A DNA stretch of 64,000 nt from an uncultured delta proteobacterium (GTDB lineage Bacteria > Myxococcota_A > Polyangia > Haliangiales > Haliangiaceae). Under the pieces are notes generated by a model. That model ran no database searches. It was not told where the DNA came from and saw only the letters and a program-made list of their open reading frames with translations. How positions within the stretch are numbered: the first letter of the stretch is position 1; the number at the start of each line of letters is the position of its first letter. Below, one piece after another: positions 12,344 to 59,482 of this stretch. Position numbers and translations under genes: made by a program. The stretch lies in contig CAVXTW010000015.1 in assembly GCA_963764695.1 (NCBI GenBank), positions 413,845 through 477,844 of the forward strand, read 5' to 3'.

Positions 12344-14427
12344 TAGCAGTCGTCGTCGTACGTGTGCTGGTGGTCCTTTCCGATGCTGAACCACCATGTG
12401 ACGTCGCCGTTCAGGTTGTAGCGATAGCTCAGCTCGCCGACCGCGTTCTTTGTCGGGGCGCCGTCGCTCGCCGCGCGCCGCCAGATCTGCCTGGCCGAGC
12501 AGCGCGGCATCGGGATCGCGCGCTCCTTCTCGCACGACCATCCCTGCACCGGATAGGCAGTCACCGAGTTGCGATCGATCGAGACGTAGAACATGCAGGT
12601 CGGCTTGTGCTCGACGCCCTTCGGCAGATCGGCCGGCCTCCTGGCCTGTGACGGCGACATGAACCGGTACAGCACCGAGAACCCCTCGTCGAGCGTCAGG
12701 TCGGCCTTGCCCGACGGATACACGCCGTCGGCATCGATGCGCACCAGGACGGCGTCGGGAAACTTCCGCTTTGCCCGCGCCAGCGCCTTGGGCAGGTAGC
12801 CGCTCACATCCCACGACGCCGCCCCGACCTGGGCTTCCGGGCGCACCGCTCCGCGCCCGACAGGCGCAGCGGTCCCATCGGTCTCGCCCGGGTTCTCTGC
12901 CCCGGTGTCCGCGACCTCCGCCTCGTCCGCGCCCCCACGGTCCGCCGCCGACCGGGCTGCCTCGCGTGGCGTCGTTCCGCGCTTTCGATCGCGCTTCCCC
13001 GACCTCTGCGCTCCCTTCCCGCCCGCGGCACCGCCACCGCCACCCATCTCTTGCCTCGCGACCGCGTCTGTCTCCTTCGCCTCGGCGCTCGCGACCTCTT
13101 CCGGCACGGTGCCGGCGTCCGGGGCGTTGGCCGCCGACGCCGCCGCATCCTGCGATGCAGAGCCTCCTGCCGGTTGCGCAGAGGAGCGCTCCTGGGTCGC
13201 GGCCTGATCCGGGCTCGCGCCGGGGGCCGAGCTCGCTGCCTGGTCCGGGCTCGCGACCTGCTCCGGGCTCGCGGCCTGCTCCACGCTCGCGGCCGGCTCG
13301 CCCTGCTCGCTTCGCTGCTGGCTGGCCACGATGGCAGCGGTGGCGGCCCCGGCGAGGACCAGCCCGGCCACCACCAGCAGCGCCGTGCGCGACCGGCGGG
13401 GCTGACCCGGCCATCGATGGTCGGGTGTCCGCGCCGCGGTCGGCGGCACGACGACCAGATCGGAGCGCGACGGCGCGCCCACCGCGGCCCATGCACCCGG
13501 TGGCAGCCCGCCGGTCGCCTCGTTCAGCGCGCGGGCCAGCTCGTCGGCCGACTGCCAGCGCCGGGCCGGATCCTTGGCCATCGCCCGCACGATGACCCGC
13601 TCGTACGCGGGCGGCATGTCCGGCGCGAACCGGCGCGGCGGCGGCGGCTCCTCCTCCACCTGCTTGCGCAGGATCTCGAACACCGACTCGCCGTCGAGCG
13701 GCCGATGCCCGGTCGCCGCCTCGTACAGGATCACGCCGACGGCGTAGATGTCCGCGCGCGCGTCGGTGGGCAGCGACTGCGCCTGCTCCGGGGACATGTA
13801 ATGAGGCGTGCCGAGGAGCGACCCTGCTCGCGTCCGGCTGATCCCGTCGCGCTGCTCCGACGCCAGCTTGGCGACACCGAAGTCGAGGATCTTGGCGCGG
13901 CCATGGCGGGTGATGAAGATGTTGTCGGGCTTGAGATCGCGGTGCACCACGCTCTTGGCGTGCGCCGCGCCCAGCCCGGCCAGCACCTCGAGCGTCCAGC
14001 GAGCCAGCGTCCCGAGAGGTATCTGGCCAAGCTGCGACAGCAGTCCCGCCAGCGGCGAGCCGTCGAGAAACTCCATCACGATGTACGGCCGACCGTCGGC
14101 CAGGCGGGCGAGGTCGAGGACATTGACGATGTTCTCGTGCCGGATGAGGTTGACCGCCCGCGCCTCGGCGAAGAAGCGCTCCACCAGATCCGGTTGATCC
14201 GCGCAGTCGTGCGAGAGCACCTTGATCGCAACGCGGCTGCGGATGGTCGGATTGATACCCTTGTAGACGCGCCCCATCCCGCCCACGCCGACCACGTTCG
14301 CGACCCGGTACGGCCCGAGCATGGCGCCGAGCAGCGGGTCGCCCGAGCCGGACAGCAGCGCGGCTCCATCCTGAGTGCAGAAGCCGCCCTGCTGGAACGT
14401 CTGGCCGCACTCCGGGCATACGTTCAT
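12343..14427 (-). CDS. Ser/Thr protein kinase with N-terminal zinc ribbon, TM helix and C-terminal extracytoplasmic domain
   Basis: MNVCPECGQTFQQGGFC; kinase motifs [32 protein letters not shown], and SPEQ in the activation segment. Confidence 0.85.
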   Translation of the reverse strand: MNVCPECGQTFQQGGFCTQDGAALLSGSGDPLLGAMLGPYRVANVVGVGGMGRVYKGINPTIRSRVAIKVLSHDCADQPDLVERFFAEARAVNLIRHENIVNVLDLARLADGRPYIVMEFLDGSPLAGLLSQLGQIPLGTLARWTLEVLAGLGAAHAKSVVHRDLKPDNIFITRHGRAKILDFGVAKLASEQRDGISRTRAGSLLGTPHYMSPEQAQSLPTDARADIYAVGVILYEAATGHRPLDGESVFEILRKQVEEEPPPPRRFAPDMPPAYERVIVRAMAKDPARRWQSADELARALNEATGGLPPGAWAAVGAPSRSDLVVVPPTAARTPDHRWPGQPRRSRTALLVVAGLVLAGAATAAIVASQQRSEQGEPAASVEQAASPEQVASPDQAASSAPGASPDQAATQERSSAQPAGGSASQDAAASAANAPDAGTVPEEVASAEAKETDAVARQEMGGGGGAAGGKGAQRSGKRDRKRGTTPREAARSAADRGGADEAEVADTGAENPGETDGTAAPVGRGAVRPEAQVGAASWDVSGYLPKALARAKRKFPDAVLVRIDADGVYPSGKADLTLDEGFSVLYRFMSPSQARRPADLPKGVEHKPTCMFYVSIDRNSVTAYPVQGWSCEKERAIPMPRCSARQIWRRAASDGAPTKNAVGELSYRYNLNGDVTWWFSIGKDHQHTYDDDC

Positions 14428-28912: not shown

Positions 28913-28985
28913 TGGCGAGGGGCGGATTCGAACCGCCGACACAGGGCTTATGAGACCCCCGCTCTACCGACTGAGCTACCCCGCC
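28913..28985 (-). tRNA. tRNA-Met (anticodon CAT)
   Basis: Minus strand reads GGCGGGGTAGCTCAGTCGGTAGAGCGGGGGTCTCATAAGCCCTGTGTCGGCGGTTCGAATCCGCCCCTCGCCACCA. Cloverleaf: 7-bp acceptor stem, D and T arms, anticodon loop CTCATAA, CCA encoded. Confidence 0.85.
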
Positions 28986-29116: not shown

Positions 29117-29187
29117 TCGGGGATCGTCTAACGGCAGGACAGCGGCCTTTGGAGCCGCTCGTGAAGGTTCGAATCCTTCTCCCCGAA
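29117..29187 (+). tRNA. tRNA-Gln (anticodon TTG)
   Basis: TCGGGGATCGTCTAACGGCAGGACAGCGGCCTTTGGAGCCGCTCGTGAAGGTTCGAATCCTTCTCCCCGAA. Acceptor TCGGGGA/TCCCCGA, anticodon stem GCGGC/GCCGC, loop CTTTGGA, T-loop TTCGAAT. Confidence 0.8.
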
Positions 29188-36407: not shown

Positions 36408-36489
36408 CGCGCAGCTGTCCCGAGCCACGGGCAGCGCGGGTCTGCGTCGATTGACCTCTATCTGAGGCCCACGCTAGTCTGGCCTGGCG

Positions 36490-37980
<1,491 letters not shown>

Positions 37981-37997: not shown

Positions 37998-40088
37998 TCA
38001 GGGATCGCTGCTGGTCGTCTCCTCGTCGGAGAAGGCGTCCATGATCGGGCTGGCGCGGCGGGAGCCGAGCAGCGCGGCCGGTCGCTGCGCATCGTCGGCG
38101 GCCCGGGCCTCGTTGGCCGCGGCGCGCATCTCGTCGTCGCGCTCCGTCGTGGCGGTGCCGATGGCCAGATCGGCGGCGCGCAGGGCGCGGCCGATGCGGC
38201 CCGGCCGGGTCGGCTCGGCGATGTCGGAGTCCGGTGCATCGCCGTCGCCGTCAACCGGATCGCCGTGCACCGACGGATCGGGCACCAGGACCACGGCCGG
38301 CACGTCGGCCCAGCGCCGGCGTCCCGCGGCGCGCACCACCCGGCGCACCGACGAGCGCAGCTGCGGGAACGGCGGGCCGGGCCGGGCCAGGAAGTAGCCC
38401 TGCCCGTAGCGCACGCCCACGTCGCACAGCACGGTCAGATCCTCCGGGCCCTCGATCCCCTCGGCCACGATGACCGCGTCGATCGCCTCGGCGATGCGCT
38501 GCAGCGAGCGCACCATCTCGCGCTTCACCGTCGACTTCGACACGCCGCGGGTCAGCACGTCGCTGAGCTTGATGAAGTCCGGGCGCAGCGCCATCACCGT
38601 CTCGAGGTTGGAGTGGCGGGTGCCGACGTCGTCGATGGCCACGCCGAAGCCGGCCCGGGTGTAGCCGGCCAGCGCCTGGCGGAACGACGCGAAGTTCTCG
38701 ATGGCCAGCTTCTCGGTGATCTCGAAGACGACGTTGGCCGGCGTGAGCTCGGCGGCGGCGAGGAGATTGGCCACCTCGCTCTCGATGAAGGAGCTGTCGT
38801 AGAACGACGTCGGCAGGAGATTCACGAACAGTCGGTGCACCGGCTCCAGCCCGGCCGCGCCGACGAGCGCGCTGCGAAAGCATGCCCGGTCGAGCTCGAA
38901 GGTGAGCTCCACCTCGTCGGCCACCGAGAACAGCGCGGTCGGCGACTCCAGCGAGCTGTCGCGCGGCCCGCGGGCCAGCGCCTCGAAGCCGAAGATGGTG
39001 CCCGACGCCATGTCCACGATCGGCTGGTAGACCGACTGCAGCATCCCGCGCAGGATGATTTCTTGTAGATGCGTGCGGTGGCGCTGGATGGCGCGCTCGC
39101 GGTGGAGCAGCGCCGAGCGGTGCGCCTCGCCGACAAGGCGGACCAGCAGACGATCCGGGCGCACCATCGGATTGTCGAGGACGCGCGAGAACCCGACCAT
39201 CACGCGCGGCTGCTCGCGGGTGAAGCCGGCCAGCGCGTCGGACAGCGAGCGCTCGAGGTTGGCCTCCACGCGCGAGGCGATGGCCTCGAGGTCAACAGGC
39301 GATCCGCGGTCGTCGCGCGGCGAGGCCAGGAAGCAAAGGTAGCCGTCCGAGTCCTCGGTGCGGCAGATGAGGTCGTCGCGGCGCAGACGATCGCCGCGCA
39401 TGCGATCGAGCAGATCGCCCGCGCGCGCCATCACGTCGGCGTGATGGGTCGGACCGAGCTCGCGCTCGACCTCGCGCAGGTGCGACAGGTCGACGAACAG
39501 GCACGCCATCGACCGATCGCGGCGCAGGCTGGCCGCGATGTCGGAGAGCCGCACGTGATACGTGGTGAACCGTTCGGGACGCGGCGCCACGTCGCTGCCG
39601 AGCGCGGTGCGGCGACCGAACACAGGCGAGCTGTCCGCGTCGGCCTGCGCCTGCGCCGCGCGCGCGTCGCGCTTGCAGCGAAACCAGTCGCTCAGTCGCT
39701 CGAGCAGCTGCAGGAGCGAATCGCCGAGCGGCCACTCGCTCTCGATGTGGTGCGGCCGGCAGCCGTTGACCGCGGCGACCATCGCGCGCTCGCCATCGTG
39801 GGTCTCGCGGTTCGACTCAGGCGCCACAAGCACGCGCCTGCAATCGGGGCGCAGCTTGCGAACCTCGGTCAAGATGCTCGCGCCGTCGATCACCGGCGGT
39901 TGATGAAGTGCGATCACGACCGCGAGATCTGGCTCTGCGCGCATCGCGGCGAGCGCGCTCTCCGCGTCGATCGCAGTCACGAGACGAAAGCGCCGGCGCA
40001 CGAGAGAGGCGAACCTCTCCAGTTCTCCCACCTCGTGAGCCACCACCAGGACGACCGCCCCCCCGGGCGGTGTGACATGGGACAACAT
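37998..40088 (-). CDS. Response-regulator receiver / degenerate GGDEF / EAL-domain protein (c-di-GMP phosphodiesterase type)
   Basis: N-terminal REC-like domain; EAL motifs FEALAR, EITE, DDVGT, EGIE, GQGY in the C-terminal third; acidic C-terminal tail. Confidence 0.8.
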   Translation of the reverse strand: MLSHVTPPGGAVVLVVAHEVGELERFASLVRRRFRLVTAIDAESALAAMRAEPDLAVVIALHQPPVIDGASILTEVRKLRPDCRRVLVAPESNRETHDGERAMVAAVNGCRPHHIESEWPLGDSLLQLLERLSDWFRCKRDARAAQAQADADSSPVFGRRTALGSDVAPRPERFTTYHVRLSDIAASLRRDRSMACLFVDLSHLREVERELGPTHHADVMARAGDLLDRMRGDRLRRDDLICRTEDSDGYLCFLASPRDDRGSPVDLEAIASRVEANLERSLSDALAGFTREQPRVMVGFSRVLDNPMVRPDRLLVRLVGEAHRSALLHRERAIQRHRTHLQEIILRGMLQSVYQPIVDMASGTIFGFEALARGPRDSSLESPTALFSVADEVELTFELDRACFRSALVGAAGLEPVHRLFVNLLPTSFYDSSFIESEVANLLAAAELTPANVVFEITEKLAIENFASFRQALAGYTRAGFGVAIDDVGTRHSNLETVMALRPDFIKLSDVLTRGVSKSTVKREMVRSLQRIAEAIDAVIVAEGIEGPEDLTVLCDVGVRYGQGYFLARPGPPFPQLRSSVRRVVRAAGRRRWADVPAVVLVPDPSVHGDPVDGDGDAPDSDIAEPTRPGRIGRALRAADLAIGTATTERDDEMRAAANEARAADDAQRPAALLGSRRASPIMDAFSDEETTSSDP

Positions 40089-40260
40089 GGGCGTAGGCGT
40101 TCGATTGTATACGAGCGCCTGCTGCAGCCCTCATACGCACGAAAAATATTCGTGAACGCACATCGTGCATCGCTGTACGCCAACCGAGGGTGATGGCGGT
40201 GTGTACCGGCGATGTCGGCGGCGATGCCGGCGCCGATGCCGCCGGTGATGCCGGCGCCGA

Positions 40261-45719: not shown

Positions 45720-46223
45720 CTAGAACGCCGCCTCGTCACTCTCGTCCGGCATCGGGTGCAATGTCAGCGTGGCCGAGATGCCGCCCGCCGTGCAGGTGCC
45801 GCGGCCGATCTGCAGGCGCTCCGCGGTCAGATCGATCACGCACTGCTCGCCACGGTGCTCTGCGATGAGCGCGCTGCCCGGGACCACGCGGATCTCGGCG
45901 ACCTTCGGGTCTGCGGTGGTCAGGATCCGCGCCTCGAGCTCACTGTAGTAGACCTCCACGCGCGGAAACAGACAGGCCGGCTCGTCCGAGCACTCGCGGT
46001 CGCGGCCCGGCATGTTGACGTGCAGCCGCACCTGGTAGTCGCGATCGAACGCGGGCCGGCACGCCATCTCCATGCAGACCGTATCCTCGGTGCAGATCGT
46101 CCGCAGATCGGGGCACGCCTCGATGTGCTCCCGTGCGTCCGGTTGGTCAACGGTCACGGCGTCGCTGCAGCCGGATGCAGGGAAGGCGAGCATTGCCGCC
46201 AGAAAGATGTTTCTCGTAGTCAT
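45720..46223 (-). CDS. Cys-rich lipoprotein, paralog A (167 aa)
   Basis: MTTRNIFLAAMLAFPASGC lipobox; 12 Cys; SD AGGAG upstream. Confidence 0.55.
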   Translation of the reverse strand: MTTRNIFLAAMLAFPASGCSDAVTVDQPDAREHIEACPDLRTICTEDTVCMEMACRPAFDRDYQVRLHVNMPGRDRECSDEPACLFPRVEVYYSELEARILTTADPKVAEIRVVPGSALIAEHRGEQCVIDLTAERLQIGRGTCTAGGISATLTLHPMPDESDEAAF

Positions 46224-46249
46224 TTGTTTCTCCTGATGCGGGCGCAGGG

Positions 46250-46705
46250 TCAGAGCGGCATCGGGTCCAGCACCATCGTGACTCCCACGTTGGTGCCGTG
46301 GCAGACGACGAAGCCGGTGCGCAGGCGCTCCGCCGTGAGCTCGACCGCGCACTGCTCGGACTCGGACTCGAAGTCGACGATCAACGAGCTGCCGGATCTC
46401 ACGTCGATCTCGGCGTCCTGTGGAATGACCTCCGTGATCGGCTCTGCGCTGTAGGAAACCGTCACCGGTCCAATCGGGCAGTCCAGTGTCACCGCGCACG
46501 GCAACCCGACGCCGATCCTGTACGCCGTGACGTGCACCTTGTAGGCGCGGTCGAATGCCGGCTCGCACTCCGCCTCGCCACAGATCGTGTCCCCGGCGCA
46601 CTCCATCCCCCGCTCCTCGCAGATGGATGGCTCGGGGCCTTCCTCGCTGCAGCCGGACGCGGACAGGGCCAGAACGGCCGCCAGGACGATGTTGTTCACT
46701 CTCAC
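46250..46705 (-). CDS. Cys-rich lipoprotein, paralog B (151 aa; GTG start)
   Basis: (GTG)RVNNIVLAAVLALSASGC. It is colinear with paralog A including the upstream ttgtt(t/c)ctcctgatgc SD region. Confidence 0.55.
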   Translation of the reverse strand: MRVNNIVLAAVLALSASGCSEEGPEPSICEERGMECAGDTICGEAECEPAFDRAYKVHVTAYRIGVGLPCAVTLDCPIGPVTVSYSAEPITEVIPQDAEIDVRSGSSLIVDFESESEQCAVELTAERLRTGFVVCHGTNVGVTMVLDPMPL

Positions 46706-46987
46706 TTGTTCCTCCTGATGCCGACCGATCGAGAAGCTCAGGTTTCGGTCGGCCCCGGAGTCCACGCGAGAAACGATCGGAGAAAGGACCACCCGTCGGA
46801 GGCGTCTCGATCACCCACCAGAAAAATGTTGGTGGGTTTCACGTGTTCCCCCTGATTGCGAGCCGATCGCGCGCCAAACAATAAATTTGCAGTCGGGCGC
46901 GAGTGCCATGTCGCAAAAGGCCGTCCGAAAGAGCCTCTCCGACAGTGGGGTGTTCATTGCCGGCGAAGAACTCGATGGGGGCTCGTC

Positions 46988-47617
46988 ATGGAGGACAGAG
47001 TGACGCGACCGCTTCAAGCACCCGCGGGTCGACAGGCGCGTTTGGCGCCGTGCTCGGCTCCGTGTGACGCTGCAGTAGCCATGACCGGCACGGGGGGGCC
47101 GCGTGGTCCGGACGATGGTCCGCCCGGTTCGCCCGGGAATGGACTGGCCGAGCATGCGCCCGCGCTGCGCGCGCTCGCCGCGATGCTGTGCCGCAACCCC
47201 GACGGGCGCGAGGACCTGGTCCAGGACACGTTCGAGCGCGCGCTGCGCCATCTATCAGGACCTCACACACCGGTGCGAAACACGCGGGCCTGGCTGGTCG
47301 CGATCCTGCGCAACGTCTTCATCGATCGAAAGCGCGCCGAGCACGCCACGACGGCCGACGTCGAGGACTGCGAGGCGCCGGAACCGGATCCGCAGCCGGC
47401 CTGGGCCGACGTCAACCTGGCGGACGTGCGCGCGGCCTGCCAGGAGATCGACCCGGCTCTGCGGACCGTCTTCGAGCTCCACTACCTGGACGGGCTGCAT
47501 TACCGCGAGATCGCGTTCCGGATGGATGTCCCGGAGAACACCGTGGCGAGTCGCCTGTTCCGGGCCCGCAAGGCCCTTCGGGACCGGCTGCTCGCGAAGT
47601 TGAGGAGGCCGTCGTGA
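46988..47617 (+). CDS. ECF-type RNA polymerase sigma factor
   Basis: Region 2 REDLVQDTFERALRHL...AWLVAILRNVFIDRKR; region 4 ELHYLDGLHYREIAFRMDVPENTVASRLFRARKAL. Confidence 0.75.
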   Translation: MEDRVTRPLQAPAGRQARLAPCSAPCDAAVAMTGTGGPRGPDDGPPGSPGNGLAEHAPALRALAAMLCRNPDGREDLVQDTFERALRHLSGPHTPVRNTRAWLVAILRNVFIDRKRAEHATTADVEDCEAPEPDPQPAWADVNLADVRAACQEIDPALRTVFELHYLDGLHYREIAFRMDVPENTVASRLFRARKALRDRLLAKLRRPS

Positions 47618-49392
47618 GAATCGAACCGAGCGGAGAAGAAATCCAGGCGCTGGTCGACGGCGAGCTGTCGCCAGAGGACGCCGCGAGGGTTCGCTCGGCG
47701 CTTGTCTGCGGAGGAATCCTGCTGCTCGAGCTCGACGAGTGCATGCAGATGGCAGCGCTCGCCTTCGAGCTACGCGAACAGGCCCGTGAGCTGGAGAGCG
47801 CGGTCCAGATCGAAAAGGGCCGCGTGCCCGTCGGTCCGTCCAACGTCATCCCCCTCAAGCGCCCGATCAAGCCGCGAGCGAAGACCTTCATGGCGATGGT
47901 CGCATCACTCGCGATGGCCGGCGCGGCCGCCATGTTCATCTTCCCGCGCCGCGGCCCGTCAGAGCCCGTTGTCGCCGTCGCCGATCCAGCCAGCGCCTTC
48001 GCCGGAGCACTCGCACCACGCCGCTCGATGGCGCCGCGTCTGTCGTGGCCGGCCGCCGATCGATTCCGACCATACGACACGGCCCGAGCCGGCGGCACGG
48101 GGGAACGCCCGGCCGAGGCGCTGTCGTACGAGCTGCTGGGCAAGGTCGAGAAGCTCGGCGATCCGCGTGCCATGACCGCGGCCAAGGTCCTCGGCGGAGA
48201 CACGACCCAGGCCCGCAACCAGCTCGTCCTCGCCAGGCCGTCTCCCGACGCCAGCAGCGACCGCGCGGCCATCGCCCTGGTCGAGGGCAAGCCCGAGGAC
48301 GCCCTGCTCTCCGCGTCCGCAGCGGTCGAGTCGGATCCGCGCCACATCCAGGCGACCTGGAACCGCGCCCTGGCCCTCGAGCGACTGGGCATGCCCCTCA
48401 CGGCAGCCGAAGCATTCGAAGCAGTGGCAGCCCGCCGCGAGCCCGGCTGGAGCCAGGAAGCTTTGGAGCGCGCCACGGCCCTCCGCGCCCAGTTCGAGCG
48501 ACGCAAGTCCGCCTGGGAAGCCGCCAACACCGTCGGAGCCCGCCTCGTCGCCGGCGCCATGGTCAACAACGCGACGCTGGCCGCCTACCCCAGCCTCATG
48601 CGCCGCTACTTCTACGAAGCGGTGCGAACGGCGCCGTCGGCCGACCGCGTGAAGGCACTGCGCCCGATCGCATCGACGCTCGACGCCCGCTTCGGCGGCA
48701 GCCACCTGACCGCCTCCATCGATCGCATCGCAAAGTCCGACTTCCGCCGCCGCGCCCCTCTCGCCGCCCGCTACGCCGTGCTCGCCCGCCGCGAGATGAA
48801 GGACCCGGTCGCGGTGCAGACGCTGCTGCGCGATCTGCGTGCCGCCCGCCAGAAGGACATCCTCCTCGGCGCCCTTCTGCACGCCGGCCCGACCGACTGG
48901 CGACCGGACAAGGCCCAGCTGAACGAGTACCTCGCGCTCGCGCGGGCCAGCACCGATCCATGGTTCCCGCTGGAGGCAGATGTCAATCGCGCCTGGCACG
49001 TGCTCTGGGCTCGTGACTTCCCGCTCGCGGTGACGGTGCTCAGCGGAGCTGCAGCGCGCTGCGACACCGACAGTATCGACGAGCTCTGTCTGGACGTCTT
49101 CCGGCTTCTCACGCACGCCCATCTACAGCTTCATCGCCCTGCCCAGGCGGGGCGAACGCTCGAGAGAGCTCGCGAGCTGGCGCGCGTATCCGCCAACGTC
49201 GCCCGCGATGCAGAACTGCTCGAGTACGCGCAGCTGGTCGCCACCTTCCGCGATCATGTCTCCGGCGACTTGTTCGCCCTGTCAACGGCGTACGTCGACG
49301 AGTGGAGCCGACAGAGCGCGGACTGCGCTGATGTAAGCAAGGCGCACGAGTGGAAGGCGACGGCGCTCATCAACCAGCATCGACATGGATGA
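47614..49392 (+). CDS. Anti-sigma-factor-like N-terminus fused to a long helical/TPR-like domain
   Basis: GTG overlaps the sigma stop (GTGA). The N-terminus VRIEPSGEEIQALVDGELSPEDAARVRSAL is an anti-sigma hallmark. It has a TM helix MAMVASLAMAGAAAMFIF and ~480 aa of helical repeats. Confidence 0.6.
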   Translation: MRIEPSGEEIQALVDGELSPEDAARVRSALVCGGILLLELDECMQMAALAFELREQARELESAVQIEKGRVPVGPSNVIPLKRPIKPRAKTFMAMVASLAMAGAAAMFIFPRRGPSEPVVAVADPASAFAGALAPRRSMAPRLSWPAADRFRPYDTARAGGTGERPAEALSYELLGKVEKLGDPRAMTAAKVLGGDTTQARNQLVLARPSPDASSDRAAIALVEGKPEDALLSASAAVESDPRHIQATWNRALALERLGMPLTAAEAFEAVAARREPGWSQEALERATALRAQFERRKSAWEAANTVGARLVAGAMVNNATLAAYPSLMRRYFYEAVRTAPSADRVKALRPIASTLDARFGGSHLTASIDRIAKSDFRRRAPLAARYAVLARREMKDPVAVQTLLRDLRAARQKDILLGALLHAGPTDWRPDKAQLNEYLALARASTDPWFPLEADVNRAWHVLWARDFPLAVTVLSGAAARCDTDSIDELCLDVFRLLTHAHLQLHRPAQAGRTLERARELARVSANVARDAELLEYAQLVATFRDHVSGDLFALSTAYVDEWSRQSADCADVSKAHEWKATALINQHRHG

Positions 49393-50653
49393 TGCTCGCC
49401 ACGAGATGACCGCGGGCGGCGCGGGCACATGCAAGGCTCCATTCACGGCGAATCGCGCGTTCGTTCTCGCGCAGCTGCTCAGCGACGGCGGCGACGACGC
49501 GGCCGTGCGAGCGTTGCGGAGCGACATCGCTGCGCTGCGCACATCGGGCACGGTCAGCCCGGGTGAACGCGTATTCCTCGACCACGCCGAGGGGCGCTTG
49601 CTCATTCATCGCGCGCCGGCCGAGGGCCGAACTCTTCTGCGTCGCGCCATCGAGTCCGCTGCCACTCTTCCCGAAGACCGTGAAGCGGAGAGGGCGCGTT
49701 CGTACAGCTACTCGGCTCTGATCGAGGAAGCCGCGTCGCGCGACGCCAACAGCGAGGCGCTCGCGCTCTTGGCCGAGAACCTCAACCTACCGGCGCCGGA
49801 GCGATGCGCTCTGGGCGCATCGATGGAGGACTCGGTAGTGTTCGTGGCGCGTGATGGGCATGGAGCCGTGATCGGTGCTCGCAGCGTGATGGCGCCCGGC
49901 GAGCCAGCCGGTGCACGTCCAGTGCCCGAGGAGATCCGGGCGGCCCTGGTCGGCTGCGAAACGGTCGACGTGTTCGCACGGCAGCCGTACTATGGTCGGC
50001 CCGAGCTTCTGCCACGTGACATGGCCTGGCAGTTCCGGACTGGAACTCCGGCCAAGGCAACCCCGAACACTTCGTCTGAGCCGGGCACGTCGGGACGGCA
50101 CGTGGTGGTGGCCAACATTATCCCGCCGCCCGGGCTCGAGCTCGCGCCGCTTCGCCCCGTAGTGGAGTCGCCAGGCACGACCCTCATCGAAGGCGCAGCG
50201 GCGACCCCCGAGCGGGTGATGGCCGCTGCGTCGGATGCGTCGTTCCTCGAGATCCACGCACATGGCCTGCTGGGCAGAGCAGAGTCGGACACCTCGATGC
50301 TCGTCCTCGCGCCCGACGTGAAGGGTCGCCATACGCTGCAGGGCGACGACATCCGGCGCGCGCGGCTGCGTGGCGCACCGGTGGTCGTCCTGGCGGCCTG
50401 CCATGCATCGGCCATCGGAGGATCCTTCCACTCGACGTGGGGCCTGGCCGACGCATTTGCCGAGGCGGGCGCAAGCGCGGTAATCGCCTCACCGGACGTG
50501 ATCCAGGACGTGAGCGCGCCGGCGTTCTTCACTGCGTTGCGTGGGCGCATCGCAGCCGGTCAGCTTCCGGCCGCGGCGTTGCGAGACGAGCGCATGGCTC
50601 CGCATGATCCGGACGAGCGGGCCTGGATCGATCGGCTCGTCGTCTTTCGCTGA
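49385..50653 (+). CDS. CHAT-domain (caspase-like peptidase) protein
   Basis: FLEIHAHGLLG ... VVVLAACHASAIG is the His/Cys dyad in CHAT spacing. The start overlaps the upstream stop by 8 nt. Confidence 0.7.
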   Translation: MDDARHEMTAGGAGTCKAPFTANRAFVLAQLLSDGGDDAAVRALRSDIAALRTSGTVSPGERVFLDHAEGRLLIHRAPAEGRTLLRRAIESAATLPEDREAERARSYSYSALIEEAASRDANSEALALLAENLNLPAPERCALGASMEDSVVFVARDGHGAVIGARSVMAPGEPAGARPVPEEIRAALVGCETVDVFARQPYYGRPELLPRDMAWQFRTGTPAKATPNTSSEPGTSGRHVVVANIIPPPGLELAPLRPVVESPGTTLIEGAAATPERVMAAASDASFLEIHAHGLLGRAESDTSMLVLAPDVKGRHTLQGDDIRRARLRGAPVVVLAACHASAIGGSFHSTWGLADAFAEAGASAVIASPDVIQDVSAPAFFTALRGRIAAGQLPAAALRDERMAPHDPDERAWIDRLVVFR

Positions 50654-50689
50654 GGTAGGTACGGGAACTGATGAGGGAGGAGGGTGCGA

Positions 50690-50926
50690 ATGGCCCACGG
50701 TGATGATTGTGCGCTGAGCAGAGAAAGCGCGTCCCCACGAGACCCCTGCCGAAGGTGTCACCTGGGGACAGTGGGATCAGATGGACTGTGTCCCTACGCG
50801 AACATTGGCGTAGGTCCGATTGGAGGTCCAAAGGGACTGGCCCTTCTGATCGCCGTGCAGGCGCAAGACCACCGGGATGCTGCCGACCACCTGGACGAAG
50901 TGCTGGAGATCATCAAAAGCTGCTGA
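50690..50926 (+). CDS. Small Cys-rich hypothetical protein (78 aa) in a GC-poor spacer
   Basis: Strong SD GGGAGGAGGG 6 nt before the ATG; translation MAHGDDCALSRESASPRDPCRRCHLGTVGSDGLCPYANIG...EIIKSC. GC3 is ~60%, well below neighbours. Confidence 0.3.
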   Translation: MAHGDDCALSRESASPRDPCRRCHLGTVGSDGLCPYANIGVGPIGGPKGLALLIAVQAQDHRDAADHLDEVLEIIKSC

Positions 50927-50995
50927 TCGTGCCGGCAACCTGTAGGGCAGCCGCTGGCTCGCGAAGAAGCGCCGGTACCGCCGTCTCTCCTGTGA

Positions 50996-52290
<1,295 letters not shown>

Positions 52291-52294
<4 letters not shown>

Positions 52295-52917
52295 GACGGG
52301 AGCGACCGGCCGGCGGCCGCGGTCCGCTGCTGGCGCAGGTCCCGCCCGGTGTCGTCACCGACCTGCTCGAGGCGCGGAGGCGCGGCGATCCGGTGGCGGA
52401 GAGCCAGCTCCTGCCGCTGGTCTACAGCGAGCTTCGGCGGCAGGCGGCCTGGTTCCTGCGCGGCGAGCGCCCCGATCACACTCTCGTGGCGACCGATCTG
52501 GTCCACGAGGTCTACCTGCGCATGACGGACCAGGCGGCGGCATACGAGAACCGCTCCCAGTTCTTCGCCCTGGCCGCGCGCATGATGCGTCGCGTGCTGG
52601 TCGACCACGCGCGAGCGCGCGCCGCGGCCAAGCGGCCGCAGCCCGGTCTGCAAGTCACGTTCGAGGAGAAGGAGCTGCCCGCCGCCGAGCCGCGGGCGTT
52701 CGAGCTGCTCGCCCTCGACGCGGCGCTGACCGAGCTCGCCGCCTTCGACCCGCGCCAGGCCCGCCTGGTCGAGCTGCGCTACTTCGGCGGCCTCACCTCG
52801 GCGGAGGTGGCCGAGGCGCTCGGCGTGTCGGCGACGACAATCAAGCGCGAGTGGAGCCTGGCCCGGGCCTGGCTGTATCGATTTCTCACCCAGCGGGACG
52901 CGACGAATCCGGGCTGA
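52291..52917 (+). CDS. ECF sigma factor of the kinase-associated type
   Basis: ATG overlaps the kinase stop (ATGA); LVATDLVHEVYLRM (region 2.2-like), C-terminal LTSAEVAEALGVSATTIKREWSLARAWL. Confidence 0.8.
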
Positions 52918-52927
52918 GGCGCGTCGA

Positions 52928-53917
52928 TCACTCGCGATAGCCGGCCGCGAAGTCCAGGACGCAGACCGTGCCGAATCGCTTGTGCGCCGCGCAGCCGACG
53001 CCGAAGACCCGGTACTCCGACTCGAGCAGGTTGACGCGGTGGCCGCGCCCGATGACGCCGTCGTCGATGAACAGACTCATCACCATCACCGCGGCGCCGC
53101 CCCAGCCGGTGCCGATGTTCTCGCCGGACAGCCCCACGACCCGGCCATGGCGCTCCATGCGCTGGAGCGGCTGGCTGCCGTCGCGCCCGTCGTGCTCGAC
53201 GGTGCCGGCGCGGCCAATCTCGATGGCGTGAGCGCGCGCCCCCCGCGACAGACCGGGCGAGAGCCGGAGCTCCGCCCGCGGCTTGGCGCGCCGCGCCGCC
53301 TTGATCGCCTCGTCGACCGCCCGCACCCCCTCGACCGTGAGGATCGGCGCGTCGACGCCGGGCAGGTAGAGGTAGTTCTCGTGGTAGTTGCGCCGGTGCC
53401 GCTCGAGCGTCCCGGCATAGCCGCGCGGGTCGCGGCGCAGCGTGTTGACCGCCGCCACCATGCCGGCCTCGAAAGGCGTGAGCCCCGCCCCTCGCCCTCC
53501 TCGATTCGCCGCCTGCGCGCCGACGCCCTCGTCCGAGCCCGGCCCGGCCGATCCTGTCCCTGGCCCTGCCCCCCTGCCCGATCCCGACTCCGGTCCGGAC
53601 TCCGAGCCCCACACTGACTCCAATCCGGGCCCCGCCCGCGATCCGTCCTCCGACCCCGACTCGGGCCCCGACCCATCGTCCGGCCCCGACCCATCGTCCG
53701 GCCCCGGTCCGTCGTCCGGCCCCGATCCATCGTCCGCCCCCGGTCCGTCGTCCGGCCCCGGTCCATCTTCCGGTCCCTCTGACTCCGGTCCCCACTCCTC
53801 CCCGCCCTCGCCGCCCTCCCCGTACGCCCCGGGCGGCCCGGAGTATCGCGGCTGCGCGGCCGGCGCCACACATCCTGCCGCTCCGACCAGCGCCGCGATC
53901 GTCCACAGACGGAACAT
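52928..53917 (-). CDS. CAP/SCP/PR-1-like domain lipoprotein with a Gly-Pro-Asp tandem-repeat linker
   Basis: MFRLWTIAALVGAAGC lipobox; repeats GPDDGPGPDDGSGPDDGS; C-terminal CAP domain (...GENIGTGWGG..., HRVNLLESEYRVFGVGCA). Confidence 0.75.
   Translation of the reverse strand: MFRLWTIAALVGAAGCVAPAAQPRYSGPPGAYGEGGEGGEEWGPESEGPEDGPGPDDGPGADDGSGPDDGPGPDDGSGPDDGSGPESGSEDGSRAGPGLESVWGSESGPESGSGRGAGPGTGSAGPGSDEGVGAQAANRGGRGAGLTPFEAGMVAAVNTLRRDPRGYAGTLERHRRNYHENYLYLPGVDAPILTVEGVRAVDEAIKAARRAKPRAELRLSPGLSRGARAHAIEIGRAGTVEHDGRDGSQPLQRMERHGRVVGLSGENIGTGWGGAAVMVMSLFIDDGVIGRGHRVNLLESEYRVFGVGCAAHKRFGTVCVLDFAAGYRE
53640..53790. repeat. Imperfect 18-bp tandem repeats (ccatcgtccggccccgac) encoding (GPDDGS)n inside the CAP-domain gene
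   Basis: At least 6 consecutive near-identical units are visible in the sequence. Confidence 0.6.
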
Positions 53918-53928
53918 CGTCCTCGATC

Positions 53929-54855
53929 CTACCGGTTCTTCCAGCGCGGGTCGGCCGGATTGGTGAGCGCCGCGCGCACCCGGCCGAGCGGCTTGTCCTG
54001 CCCTGCCGCGTACGCGCGCACCGCGCCGTCGCGGATGCCGGCCAGGTCGAGCCCCTGCGCGAAGCCGGTCACGGCACCCTCGAACGCATGCGCGCCGGCG
54101 AACAGCAGGCTGCGCGTGAACAGGAGCGGCACCCGCCGGGGGCCAGGCACCGCCGGGACCAGGTAGTCCTCGGTGATGCACGCCATCGCGATCGTCCCGC
54201 GGCGCGGCGCCCGGCCGCTCGGCTTCGGCCAGCGAAAGTCGCCCACGTCCATCCACCCGTTGTGCCCGACGAACGCGACCAGGCGCGCGCCGCCGCCTGC
54301 CAGAAGCTCGGTCCCGTCCGGCAGCTCGATGCGACGCACCTCACCGGCCGCAAACAGGTCAGCGGCGTAGGCGGCCATGGCGGAGCCTATCGACTCGCCG
54401 CGCCAGGCGTGCGCCACCACGTAGACCGGGAACCGCGCGCGTGCGCCGCGGGAGCGCAGTCGCCCCGACGGTGTCATCCACCGCCGCCACACGCGCAGCT
54501 CGAGCACGTCCGGCTGCGGATTCCGCACCCGCAGCACCTCGTTCCAGCCCGAGCCGCGCCGACCGAACCAGCCGCGAAAGCCGCCGCTGGTGGCCCAGTA
54601 GAGATTTCCGCCCGGGTCGTCGCCGTCGCCGAGCCGACCGCCCCCGCAGCGGAGCACGTCGTTGTCGCACAGCGGGACGTGGACCTGCACCACCAGCGGT
54701 CGCCCCGCGGCGATGTCGGCCGCCACGTCAGCCTGCAGATCCGCCAGCCACGCATCGGCATCCGCCGCGCTCTGGCCCCACGCGACACCTCGGCCACACA
54801 ACAAGGCCACCGCCGCAGCCATGAGCGCGGCGCCGCGCGAACGGACCCGTGGCAT
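53929..54855 (-). CDS. Secreted hypothetical protein
   Basis: Signal MAAAVALLCGRGVAWGQSAADADA; no family assignment. Confidence 0.45.
   Translation of the reverse strand: MPRVRSRGAALMAAAVALLCGRGVAWGQSAADADAWLADLQADVAADIAAGRPLVVQVHVPLCDNDVLRCGGGRLGDGDDPGGNLYWATSGGFRGWFGRRGSGWNEVLRVRNPQPDVLELRVWRRWMTPSGRLRSRGARARFPVYVVAHAWRGESIGSAMAAYAADLFAAGEVRRIELPDGTELLAGGGARLVAFVGHNGWMDVGDFRWPKPSGRAPRRGTIAMACITEDYLVPAVPGPRRVPLLFTRSLLFAGAHAFEGAVTGFAQGLDLAGIRDGAVRAYAAGQDKPLGRVRAALTNPADPRWKNR

Positions 54856-57142: not shown

Positions 57143-59482
<2,340 letters not shown>

Follow-up and report, generated by a model that had tools for sequence, protein, structure and literature searches.

A probable DdvS/DdvA-type sigma/anti-sigma pair in a Myxococcota metagenome contig, with its TPR-CHAT anti-sigma gene split by a single base

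Introduction

Is a caspase-like CHAT peptidase, encoded directly behind a sigma factor of the extracytoplasmic function (ECF) type and a putative anti-sigma factor, a protein of its own or a part of the anti-sigma factor? This question is raised by a locus in a 64,000-nucleotide stretch of contig CAVXTW010000015.1 from an uncultured delta proteobacterium of the Haliangiaceae (assembly GCA_963764695.1), referred to here as the window. A reading made from the sequence alone had described a three-gene operon for an ECF sigma factor, a membrane protein and a CHAT protein, divergent from two lipoprotein genes, and had placed the peptidase as a separate protein under the sigma/anti-sigma switch. Our analysis replaces this by a two-gene sigma/anti-sigma operon whose second gene is interrupted. 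The locus is very probably a pair of the type of DdvS and DdvA from Myxococcus xanthus, i.e. an ECF sigma factor translationally coupled to a single-pass anti-sigma factor with a periplasmic TPR-CHAT sensor. The kind is already known; such pairs were described in 2018 and 2024 and are reported to be widespread in Myxococcota. To our knowledge, DdvA-type anti-sigma factors have the only periplasmic caspase-like CHAT domain known within an anti-sigma factor.

Results and discussion

Two open reading frames are pieces of one anti-sigma gene

Domain scans of the open reading frames (ORFs) of the window against Pfam and NCBIfam supported the gene types read from the sequence. The first gene of the operon encodes an ECF sigma factor, with Pfam matches to Sigma70_r2 (45.5 bits) and r4_2 (55.7 bits) and a match to TIGR02937 (74.9 bits). 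Its start was set at the ATG at 47081 by alignment with the 179-aa orthologue (78% identity) of L006, a syntenic orthologous locus from a short-read metagenome with the same flanking genes as the window. An upstream ATG at 46988 was rejected, as it overlaps the conserved -10 element of the promoter described below and is not conserved in L006. The predicted GTGA junction was also found: at 47614–47617 the sigma stop codon overlaps the GTG start of a 592-aa ORF. The product of this ORF has the anti-sigma-type N-terminus and the helical, TPR-like region proposed for it, with a zf-HC2 match of 18.3 bits (under the cut-off of 22.2), a single hydrophobic helix at residues 90–112 (47881–47949) and weak TPR matches that stay below the Pfam cut-offs. 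The 422-aa ORF that follows matches Pfam CHAT with 63.8 bits against a cut-off of 24, and the His/Cys dyad reported for it is indeed intact.

The junction between these two ORFs is of a different nature. The 8-nt overlap ATGGATGA at 49385–49392, which had been taken for a second gene boundary, arises from an extra nucleotide at 49383 inside one gene. In the DNA alignment with the closest contig the window has CAGCATCGACATGG against CAGCGCCG-CATGG, and the base is missing from all six related loci compared. Deleting it yields one ORF of 1012 aa that spans 47614–50653. The anti-sigma gene of L006 is intact (1009 aa, 78% identical to the window) and runs across the break: its residues 1–590 align with the frame of 47614–49383 and residues 591–1009 with the next frame, 49385–50650. 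Compared with L006, 13 neighbouring genes over about 17 kb show no frame break in the window. The single-polypeptide form occurs in the orthologous loci L006, L007 and L009; in the window as assembled it does not.

Homologues outside the orthologous loci join the two ORFs in the same way. About 95 homologues of the 592-aa ORF are single proteins of 880–1040 aa that combine PF13490 (zf-HC2), TPR families and PF12770 (CHAT), and homologues of the 422-aa ORF, 630–705 aa in length, continue across the supposed gene boundary. Protein P0001, for example, reads KAHEWKATVLINQRRMDEARREM where the window has KAHEWKATALINQHRHG, a stop codon and then MDDARHEM. Both window ORFs also match one solved chain, 8rot_B, the 991-aa DdvA of M. 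xanthus (phmmer): the 592-aa ORF over residues 105–511 (E = 2.6e-29) and the 422-aa ORF over residues 615–990 (E = 5.8e-51). The break corresponds to about residue 570 of DdvA and thus lies within the TPR superhelix, residues 368–701 (PMC11506125). Neither a signal peptide nor a transmembrane segment was found in the 422-aa ORF. Since the homologues, L006, the extra base and the DdvA chain all join both ORFs, the operon consists of two genes, the second of which is interrupted; on the sequence, 47614–49392 and 49385–50653 are two pieces of one gene. The CHAT ORF is not an independent gene by design, whether the frameshift is real or an artefact: in the homologues and in the DdvA structure the domain is the C-terminal, periplasmic part of the anti-sigma factor.

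A survey recovered 80 genome loci, all from Myxococcota except for one record labelled 'Comamonas' and one metagenome-assembled genome (MAG) of an Acidobacteriota member. Both halves lie in one frame in nearly all of them, and at least 49 of the 80 have an ECF sigma gene directly upstream of the anti-sigma gene. Loss of the dyad residues in orthologues, or lack of synteny of the three genes elsewhere, had been named as results that would speak against the sequence-only reading. The dyad is conserved and synteny of sigma with anti-sigma-CHAT is widespread, but as two genes and not as three.

Origin of the frameshift

An assembly or base-calling error is a good possibility, just short of an even chance; the organism would then have an intact 1012-aa DdvA-like gene and a fully functional system. 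Selection on the two parts of the gene fits this explanation. The CHAT piece is under the same purifying selection as the remainder, with ratios of non-synonymous to synonymous change (omega) of 0.21–0.26 against 0.28–0.31, and it retains essentially all conserved residues of the family, a lack of any decay that at the same time speaks against a mutation in the organism. The window stems from a 509-kb metagenome contig, and the sister assemblies L004, L069, L094, P0019 and P0169, with 'contig_N' names in the style of Flye, are full of indels; P0169, a relative at 90% identity or more, is in frame across the junction. On the other hand, the extra base lies outside a homopolymer (CATCG-A-CATGG), and the 13 unbroken neighbouring genes show that the local assembly is otherwise clean, which favours a real mutation. 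Such a mutation, which would have to be very recent, is possible too, if somewhat doubtful: the 592-aa N-terminal piece would still be a membrane anti-sigma factor, signal-blind or differently regulated after the loss of CHAT, and the 422-aa piece would be an untargeted remnant. Natural CHAT-less relatives with the same order of sigma and anti-sigma genes end at a similar point. P0114 (532 aa; L090, L091 and L092) occurs in four independent contigs and P0054 (551 aa; L093) in two assemblies; both consist of the anti-sigma domain, the transmembrane helix and the scaffold/TPR part only, with an ECF sigma gene before and convergent genes after them (two tandem 181-aa genes come after P0114). Their occurrence in independent assemblies indicates that an N-terminal piece of such a size can be a working anti-sigma factor. 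Moreover, the island in which the gene lies is hypervariable and recombining, as seen from raised synonymous divergence and the mosaic structure of P0169 (see below), so that a gain or loss of function would not be surprising. The break, however, falls inside the TPR superhelix and not at a clean domain end.

The sequence-only reading, in which three genes stand apart and a CHAT peptidase of its own, expressed under the sigma/anti-sigma switch, cuts the anti-sigma factor or the lipoproteins, is very unlikely. The ATG within the overlap ATGGATGA could serve for re-initiation, the dyad is intact, and CHAT proteases acting on anti-sigma-like proteins have a precedent in the type III-E Craspase with Csx30 and RpoE, as outlined in PMC11506125. 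Yet every CHAT-bearing homologue found is fused, assemblies with evident frame errors aside. In addition, the 422-aa ORF starts partway through the TPR region and lacks an export signal. The sites that it was supposed to cut, in the anti-sigma linker or the lipoproteins, lie in the periplasm, and the conserved cysteines of the family point to a periplasmic fold. It is hardly credible that programmed +1 ribosomal frameshifting at GGA-UGA (49387–49392) restores the full-length protein. Skipping U49390 at the in-frame UGA would indeed join the frames, yield a protein as long as the homologues and create the junction peptide HRHG-DARHEM (INQHRHGDARHEM). The site, however, offers no slippery P-site codon, since a tRNA-Gly paired with GGA is unable to shift to GAU; a Shine–Dalgarno-like stimulator was not noted upstream, and the arrangement occurs in none of six relatives. 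Whether the window gene is interrupted or mis-assembled, the family assignment applies to the gene.

Indels also affect the annotation of this locus elsewhere. In public long-read MAG contigs of the clade (ENA ERZ250395xx; L004, L069/L005, L094, P0019 and P0169) they lead to spurious split or antisense gene calls.

The anti-sigma protein has a conserved CHAT dyad and appears to lack the zinc site

The dyad corresponds to His293 and Cys339 of the 422-aa ORF (codons 50261–50263 and 50399–50401), or H883 and C929 in the numbering of the fused protein, and is 99% conserved among 98 homologues. In the same 98 sequences the extracytoplasmic residues C483, C492, C571, C606, C731 and C781 are 92–100% conserved, which fits an oxidising compartment and thus a periplasmic location. 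In a scan with 19-mers, residues 91–111 of the window protein stood out as the one hydrophobic segment, and all homologues have a hydrophobic segment aligned at the position of the transmembrane helix. From its sequence, the single helix is inferred to place the TPR-CHAT module in the periplasm.

The N-terminal domain differs from that of DdvA. The zinc ligands C...H-x3-C-x2-C are kept in Myxococcaceae homologues, whereas a single Cys, one of the four ligands, is left in the window and its Kofleriaceae clade. As the helix I-II motif ALVDGELSPEDA is retained, the anti-sigma domain of this clade looks like a non-zinc type that has lost its ligands. A comparison of the N-terminal 89 aa with the PDB gave chance matches only, and DdvANt was not matched.

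Proposed mechanism and points that weigh against it

For DdvA, a cytoplasmic zinc-binding anti-sigma domain, one transmembrane helix, a flexible linker and a large, dimerising periplasmic scaffold/TPR/CHAT module have been described, and the CHAT dyads (H862/C907) face the linker of the partner protomer (PMC11506125). RseP-dependent degradation of DdvA without its TPR-CHAT part was shown in M. xanthus, and signal-triggered autoproteolysis in trans by the CHAT domain was proposed, not demonstrated, as the site-1 step (PMC11506125). By analogy, the window protein would consist of a cytoplasmic sigma-binding domain, one transmembrane helix and a periplasmic scaffold/TPR/CHAT module of about 900 aa. 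At rest, the anti-sigma domain would sequester the sigma factor and the bulky periplasmic domain would block the site-2 protease RseP, a step with experimental support for DdvA. A periplasmic signal sensed by the TPR-CHAT module might then activate the dyad, which, following the published hypothesis for DdvA, would cut the linker of the partner protomer. RseP and cytoplasmic proteases would remove the remainder and free the sigma factor, again a step that is experimentally supported for DdvA. The freed sigma factor would then transcribe its own operon from 46964–46987 and probably also the neighbouring kinase/TIGR02999 sigma operon from 50962–50985, which would amount to a cascade of sigma factors. 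In the case of a real frameshift, the 592-aa piece would still hold the sigma factor without a protease and would resemble the natural CHAT-less relatives. The earlier suggestion that the CHAT domain acts on the anti-sigma factor thus agrees with the hypothesis of DdvA autoproteolysis in trans (PMC11506125), but the domain is a part of the anti-sigma factor itself.

Several points weigh against assigning such a function to the pair. As assembled, the gene is unable to make the full-length protein, and what the pair does in this organism is deduced from its sequence and by analogy with M. xanthus. Sigma binding is deduced from family membership and gene coupling only, because just one of the four zinc ligands is kept and the zf-HC2 match misses its cut-off. 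Even for DdvA, autoproteolysis by CHAT is a hypothesis, and its dyad mutants had no phenotype in unstimulated cells (PMC11506125). Finally, the TIGR02999 sigma factor could itself read the second promoter, or both promoters.

A promoter motif suggests a sigma cascade

The mapped DdvS promoter of M. xanthus has the pattern GTAA-N16-CGT, in which AA and GT are critical (PMC6061681). The sequence CGAA-N16-CGTC at 46964–46987, 94 nt upstream of the sigma start, fits this pattern. A motif of the AA-N16-CGT type precedes the DdvS-like sigma gene in 31 of 49 loci compared with 1 of 49 control segments; among the loci that carry it are L008, L013 and L069, which have no kinase/TIGR02999 sigma genes nearby. 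The exact motif CGAAGAA-N13-CGTC has only two copies on both strands of the 64 kb, at 46964–46987 and at 50962–50985. In an alignment of five orthologues the second copy is the sole conserved island of a spacer that otherwise diverges. It precedes genes for a Hanks-type Ser/Thr kinase and a TIGR02999-type ECF sigma factor. From these sequence patterns we infer that the DdvS-like sigma factor drives its own operon and, probably, the adjacent kinase/TIGR02999 sigma operon, a predicted cascade.

Like other kinase-associated TIGR02999 ECF sigma factors, that of the window is paired with a Hanks kinase, and the two genes overlap by 4 nt. For such sigma factors, control is generally ascribed to phosphorylation by the kinase and not to an anti-sigma factor. 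Unlike other such pairs, the window operon is preceded by the motif that also marks the promoter of its DdvS-like neighbour, which suggests transcriptional control by a second ECF system. No report of a DdvS-like sigma factor controlling a kinase/TIGR02999 operon came up in a literature search that was not aimed at such a link.

About 80 bp upstream of the sigma promoter lies the AT-rich block AAACAATAAATTTGCAG (46876–46892), which is kept in four orthologues in a genome of 70% G+C. AT-rich DNA in the vicinity of DdvS promoters is a target of CarD in M. xanthus (PMC6061681).

Comparison with known systems

The locus has the same gene order as DdvS/DdvA of M. xanthus (PDB 8ROT, 8RW5, 8RLZ; PMC6061681, PMC11506125), including the overlap of the sigma stop with the anti-sigma start. 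It likewise shares the succession of N-terminal anti-sigma domain, transmembrane helix, linker, scaffold, TPR and CHAT with the His-Cys dyad, as well as a putatively autoregulated promoter of the AA-N16-CGT type, seen in the window from the sequence. It differs from the Myxococcaceae members in that it is only about 30–35% identical to them, lacks the CHCC zinc site of the anti-sigma domain, has a kinase/TIGR02999 sigma operon as its predicted second target, lies next to a lipoprotein array known only from its clade and is interrupted by a 1-nt insertion.

As outlined in PMC11506125, the type III-E Craspase (gRAMP-Csx29 TPR-CHAT with Csx30, Csx31 and RpoE) also ties a TPR-CHAT protease to the release of an ECF sigma factor through cleavage of an anti-sigma-like protein. 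In that outline Craspase is cytoplasmic, monomeric and RNA-guided and acts on a separate substrate, whereas the TPR-CHAT module of the window would be periplasmic and is fused to the anti-sigma factor. A tandem-repeat scan of the 64 kb found no CRISPR-like array, and there were no Cas matches among the neighbours scanned. The pair further resembles anti-sigma factors that are controlled by regulated intramembrane proteolysis or cleave themselves (RseA/DegS/RseP; RsgI; FoxR/FecR-type), in which the periplasmic domain is removed before the site-2 protease acts. In those systems the site-1 cut needs another protease or happens as a constitutive self-cleavage that is non-enzymatic, while here the site-1 step would be a signal-induced cut by the caspase-like domain of the anti-sigma factor itself.

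Divergent lipoproteins in a hypervariable island

The two tandem, paralogous Cys-rich lipoprotein genes noticed on the minus strand are indeed present (Table 1), separated from the sigma gene by a divergent spacer of 375 nt. Their close spacing of 26 nt indicates that they are probably co-transcribed. The proteins are 42% identical, and DNA blocks of 74–78% identity recur at a spacing of 482–515 nt; from these sequences, the genes are old tandem paralogues. Each protein has nine cysteines and a lipobox (LAFPASG-C19 and LALSASG-C19) whose Cys is at least 90% conserved in 24 family members. Neither has a Pfam or NCBIfam match; the fold of the lipoprotein body is tentatively predicted to be C2-like, a beta-sandwich that would have eight strands. 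The family is tiny, with 29 matches in an exhaustive profile search of 1.84 billion representatives. Its members have about 150–180 aa, a lipobox and eight further conserved Cys positions. One to three copies are found per genome, one in L006 and three full copies in L009.

A third copy may once have been present in the window, too. The sequence at 46738–46842 is probably what is left of the 5′ end of such a gene. Its Shine–Dalgarno and leader region resembles that of lipoprotein A, as if duplicated, and the segment is absent from L006. An inverted repeat, CCCACCAGAAAAATGTTGGTGGG, lies within it at 46812–46838.

Conservation of the lipoprotein pair in the neighbourhood of the operon turned out to be confined to the clade. 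In tblastn comparisons with the 80 genome loci, the sole matches to the lipoproteins came from close relatives and lay at the orthologous place in the chromosome. A metagenome scan yielded three loci, of which one was informative: on the short contig L087, two lipoprotein genes remain linked, in rearranged order, with genes for a TIGR02999 sigma factor and for a DdvS-like one. Upstream of the lipoprotein genes, the minus strand of 46700–47085 contains no AA-N14-18-CGT sequence, and a search of the whole window for the motif, exact or with one mismatch, gave no match there. Since no promoter of this type precedes them, control of the lipoproteins by the DdvS-like sigma factor is unsupported. 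A functional link between the lipoproteins and the sigma/anti-sigma pair is possible. The proposal that they are CHAT substrates found no support: no link to the peptidase emerged.

Orthologous loci L009 and L006 were compared with the window to follow how the island has diverged. Protein identity is 93–97% for the upstream flanking genes and 84–91% for the downstream ones (CAP, g53929, AIRS), compared with 77–79% for the DdvS-like sigma factor, 67–78% for the anti-sigma factor and 37–56% for the lipoproteins. Synonymous divergence (dS) is 0.4–1.0 in the lipoprotein/sigma/anti-sigma island against 0.06–0.36 in the flanks. Omega amounts to 0.2–0.3 for the anti-sigma pieces and 0.46–0.80 for the lipoproteins. 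P0169, a near-identical relative, is a mosaic with a window-like 5′ part and a 3′ part like the L001 allele. The raised dS and this mosaic point to exchange of divergent alleles, and not just to relaxed constraint.

A possible but unlikely reading unites the lipoprotein genes, the DdvS/DdvA-like pair and the kinase/TIGR02999 sigma operon in one hypervariable envelope-surveillance module. The fast-evolving lipoproteins, putatively C2-like and variable in copy number, would act as periplasmic baits, ligands or guarded decoys that are read by the TPR-CHAT module, with an output that runs from the DdvS-like sigma factor through the kinase to the TIGR02999 sigma factor.

Gene layout and neighbourhood

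The genes described here lie within 45720–52917 of the window, whose G+C content is about 70%, and are listed in Table 1.

Table 1. Features of the sigma/anti-sigma locus, in window coordinates
Feature	Position	Strand	Remarks
Lipoprotein B	45720..46223	-	167 aa; lipobox LAFPASG-C; 9 Cys; orthologue of the single lipoprotein gene of L006 (51% identity)
Lipoprotein A	46250..46705	-	151 aa; tandem paralogue of B; 26 nt upstream of B
Putative 5′ remnant of a third lipoprotein copy	46738..46842	-	starts with GTG as 'MKPTNIFLV...' and then loses the register; similarity over about 30 nt
Conserved AT-rich block AAACAATAAATTTGCAG	46876..46892		Four-way orthologue alignment
Predicted ECF-type promoter, CGAAGAAC-N12-CGTC (AA-N16-CGT)	46964..46987	+	Kept in 4 orthologues
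DdvS-like ECF sigma factor	47081..47617	+	178 aa; Pfam/NCBIfam; start from L006 orthologue
N-terminal piece of DdvA-like anti-sigma gene	47614..49392	+	592-aa ORF; apparent non-zinc anti-sigma domain, transmembrane helix, periplasmic scaffold and TPR
Extra A shifting the frame	49383	+	Absent from related loci; removal gives 1012-aa ORF
C-terminal piece of anti-sigma gene	49385..50653	+	422-aa ORF; last TPR repeats and CHAT
Small ORF	50690..50926	+	78 aa; 5 Cys; strong Shine–Dalgarno sequence; directly 3′ of anti-sigma gene
Second copy of promoter motif, CGAAGAAG-N12-CGTC	50962..50985	+	Upstream of kinase/sigma operon; exact match
Hanks-type Ser/Thr kinase	51005..52294	+	Start 51005 or 51050; Pfam Pkinase, E = 1.7e-46; orthologue alignment
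TIGR02999-type ECF sigma factor	52291..52917	+	TIGR02999 197 bits against cut-off of 126; 4-nt overlap with kinase stop; orthologue alignment

The 78-aa ORF behind the anti-sigma gene is uncertain as a gene. Weak conservation extends to L006 (86 aa, with PIGGPK and AAD.L motifs in common) and L004; in L009 the spacer at its position is much longer and does not align with the window.

A scan of ten neighbouring proteins with PADLOC gave only generic kinase matches (PD-T4-6/Mad6 models), which any Hanks kinase produces. Pfam scans of ten further neighbours showed housekeeping and signalling genes and no defence genes, so that these PADLOC and Pfam scans found no CBASS, CRISPR-Cas, C25 peptidase or other defence match nearby. 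The neighbours include GlmU, SCP2, a CoA-transferase, a CAP-domain protein, OmpA, kinases, a sigma-54 activator and an EAL protein. According to PMC11506125, many Myxococcota have DdvA-like pairs, often more than one in the same genome, but no more than a subset of the pairs has defence systems close by; a defence neighbourhood is thus not family-defining.

Other features of the window were noted in passing. The gene for the CAP-domain protein (cysteine-rich secretory protein family; 52928–54256, minus strand) contains an 18-nt/54-nt tandem repeat at 53623–53777 that encodes a low-complexity linker rich in Gly, Pro, Asp and Ser with GPDDGS-like units. An FHA-domain sigma-54 activator (36478–37980, plus strand) adjoins a 710-aa EAL-domain protein (37998–40130, minus strand), and further kinase paralogues lie at about 13516–14334 and 57146–59221. 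Two divergent tRNA genes, at 28913–28985 (minus strand) and 29117–29187 (plus strand), are the sole Rfam matches in the window.

Conclusions

For the architecture of DdvS/DdvA-type systems the locus adds little. Modestly new are an anti-sigma domain that appears to lack zinc, a sigma cascade predicted to reach a kinase/TIGR02999 operon, a clade-specific array of putatively C2-like lipoproteins within an island that recombines, and natural variants without CHAT. The case also calls for caution in annotation: in high-GC long-read assemblies one indel is enough for a domain of a large sensor to pass for a separate 'conflict-system' gene.

Three leads follow for the biology of the family. A clade appears to work without the zinc site. 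The predicted regulon is a second, kinase-controlled ECF sigma operon, which would make the system a sigma cascade. The lipoprotein family, which diversifies fast and is closely linked, might act as a partner or as a signal, and if the surveillance module outlined above proves true, that module would provide a concrete genetic handle on the signal of DdvA-type sensors.

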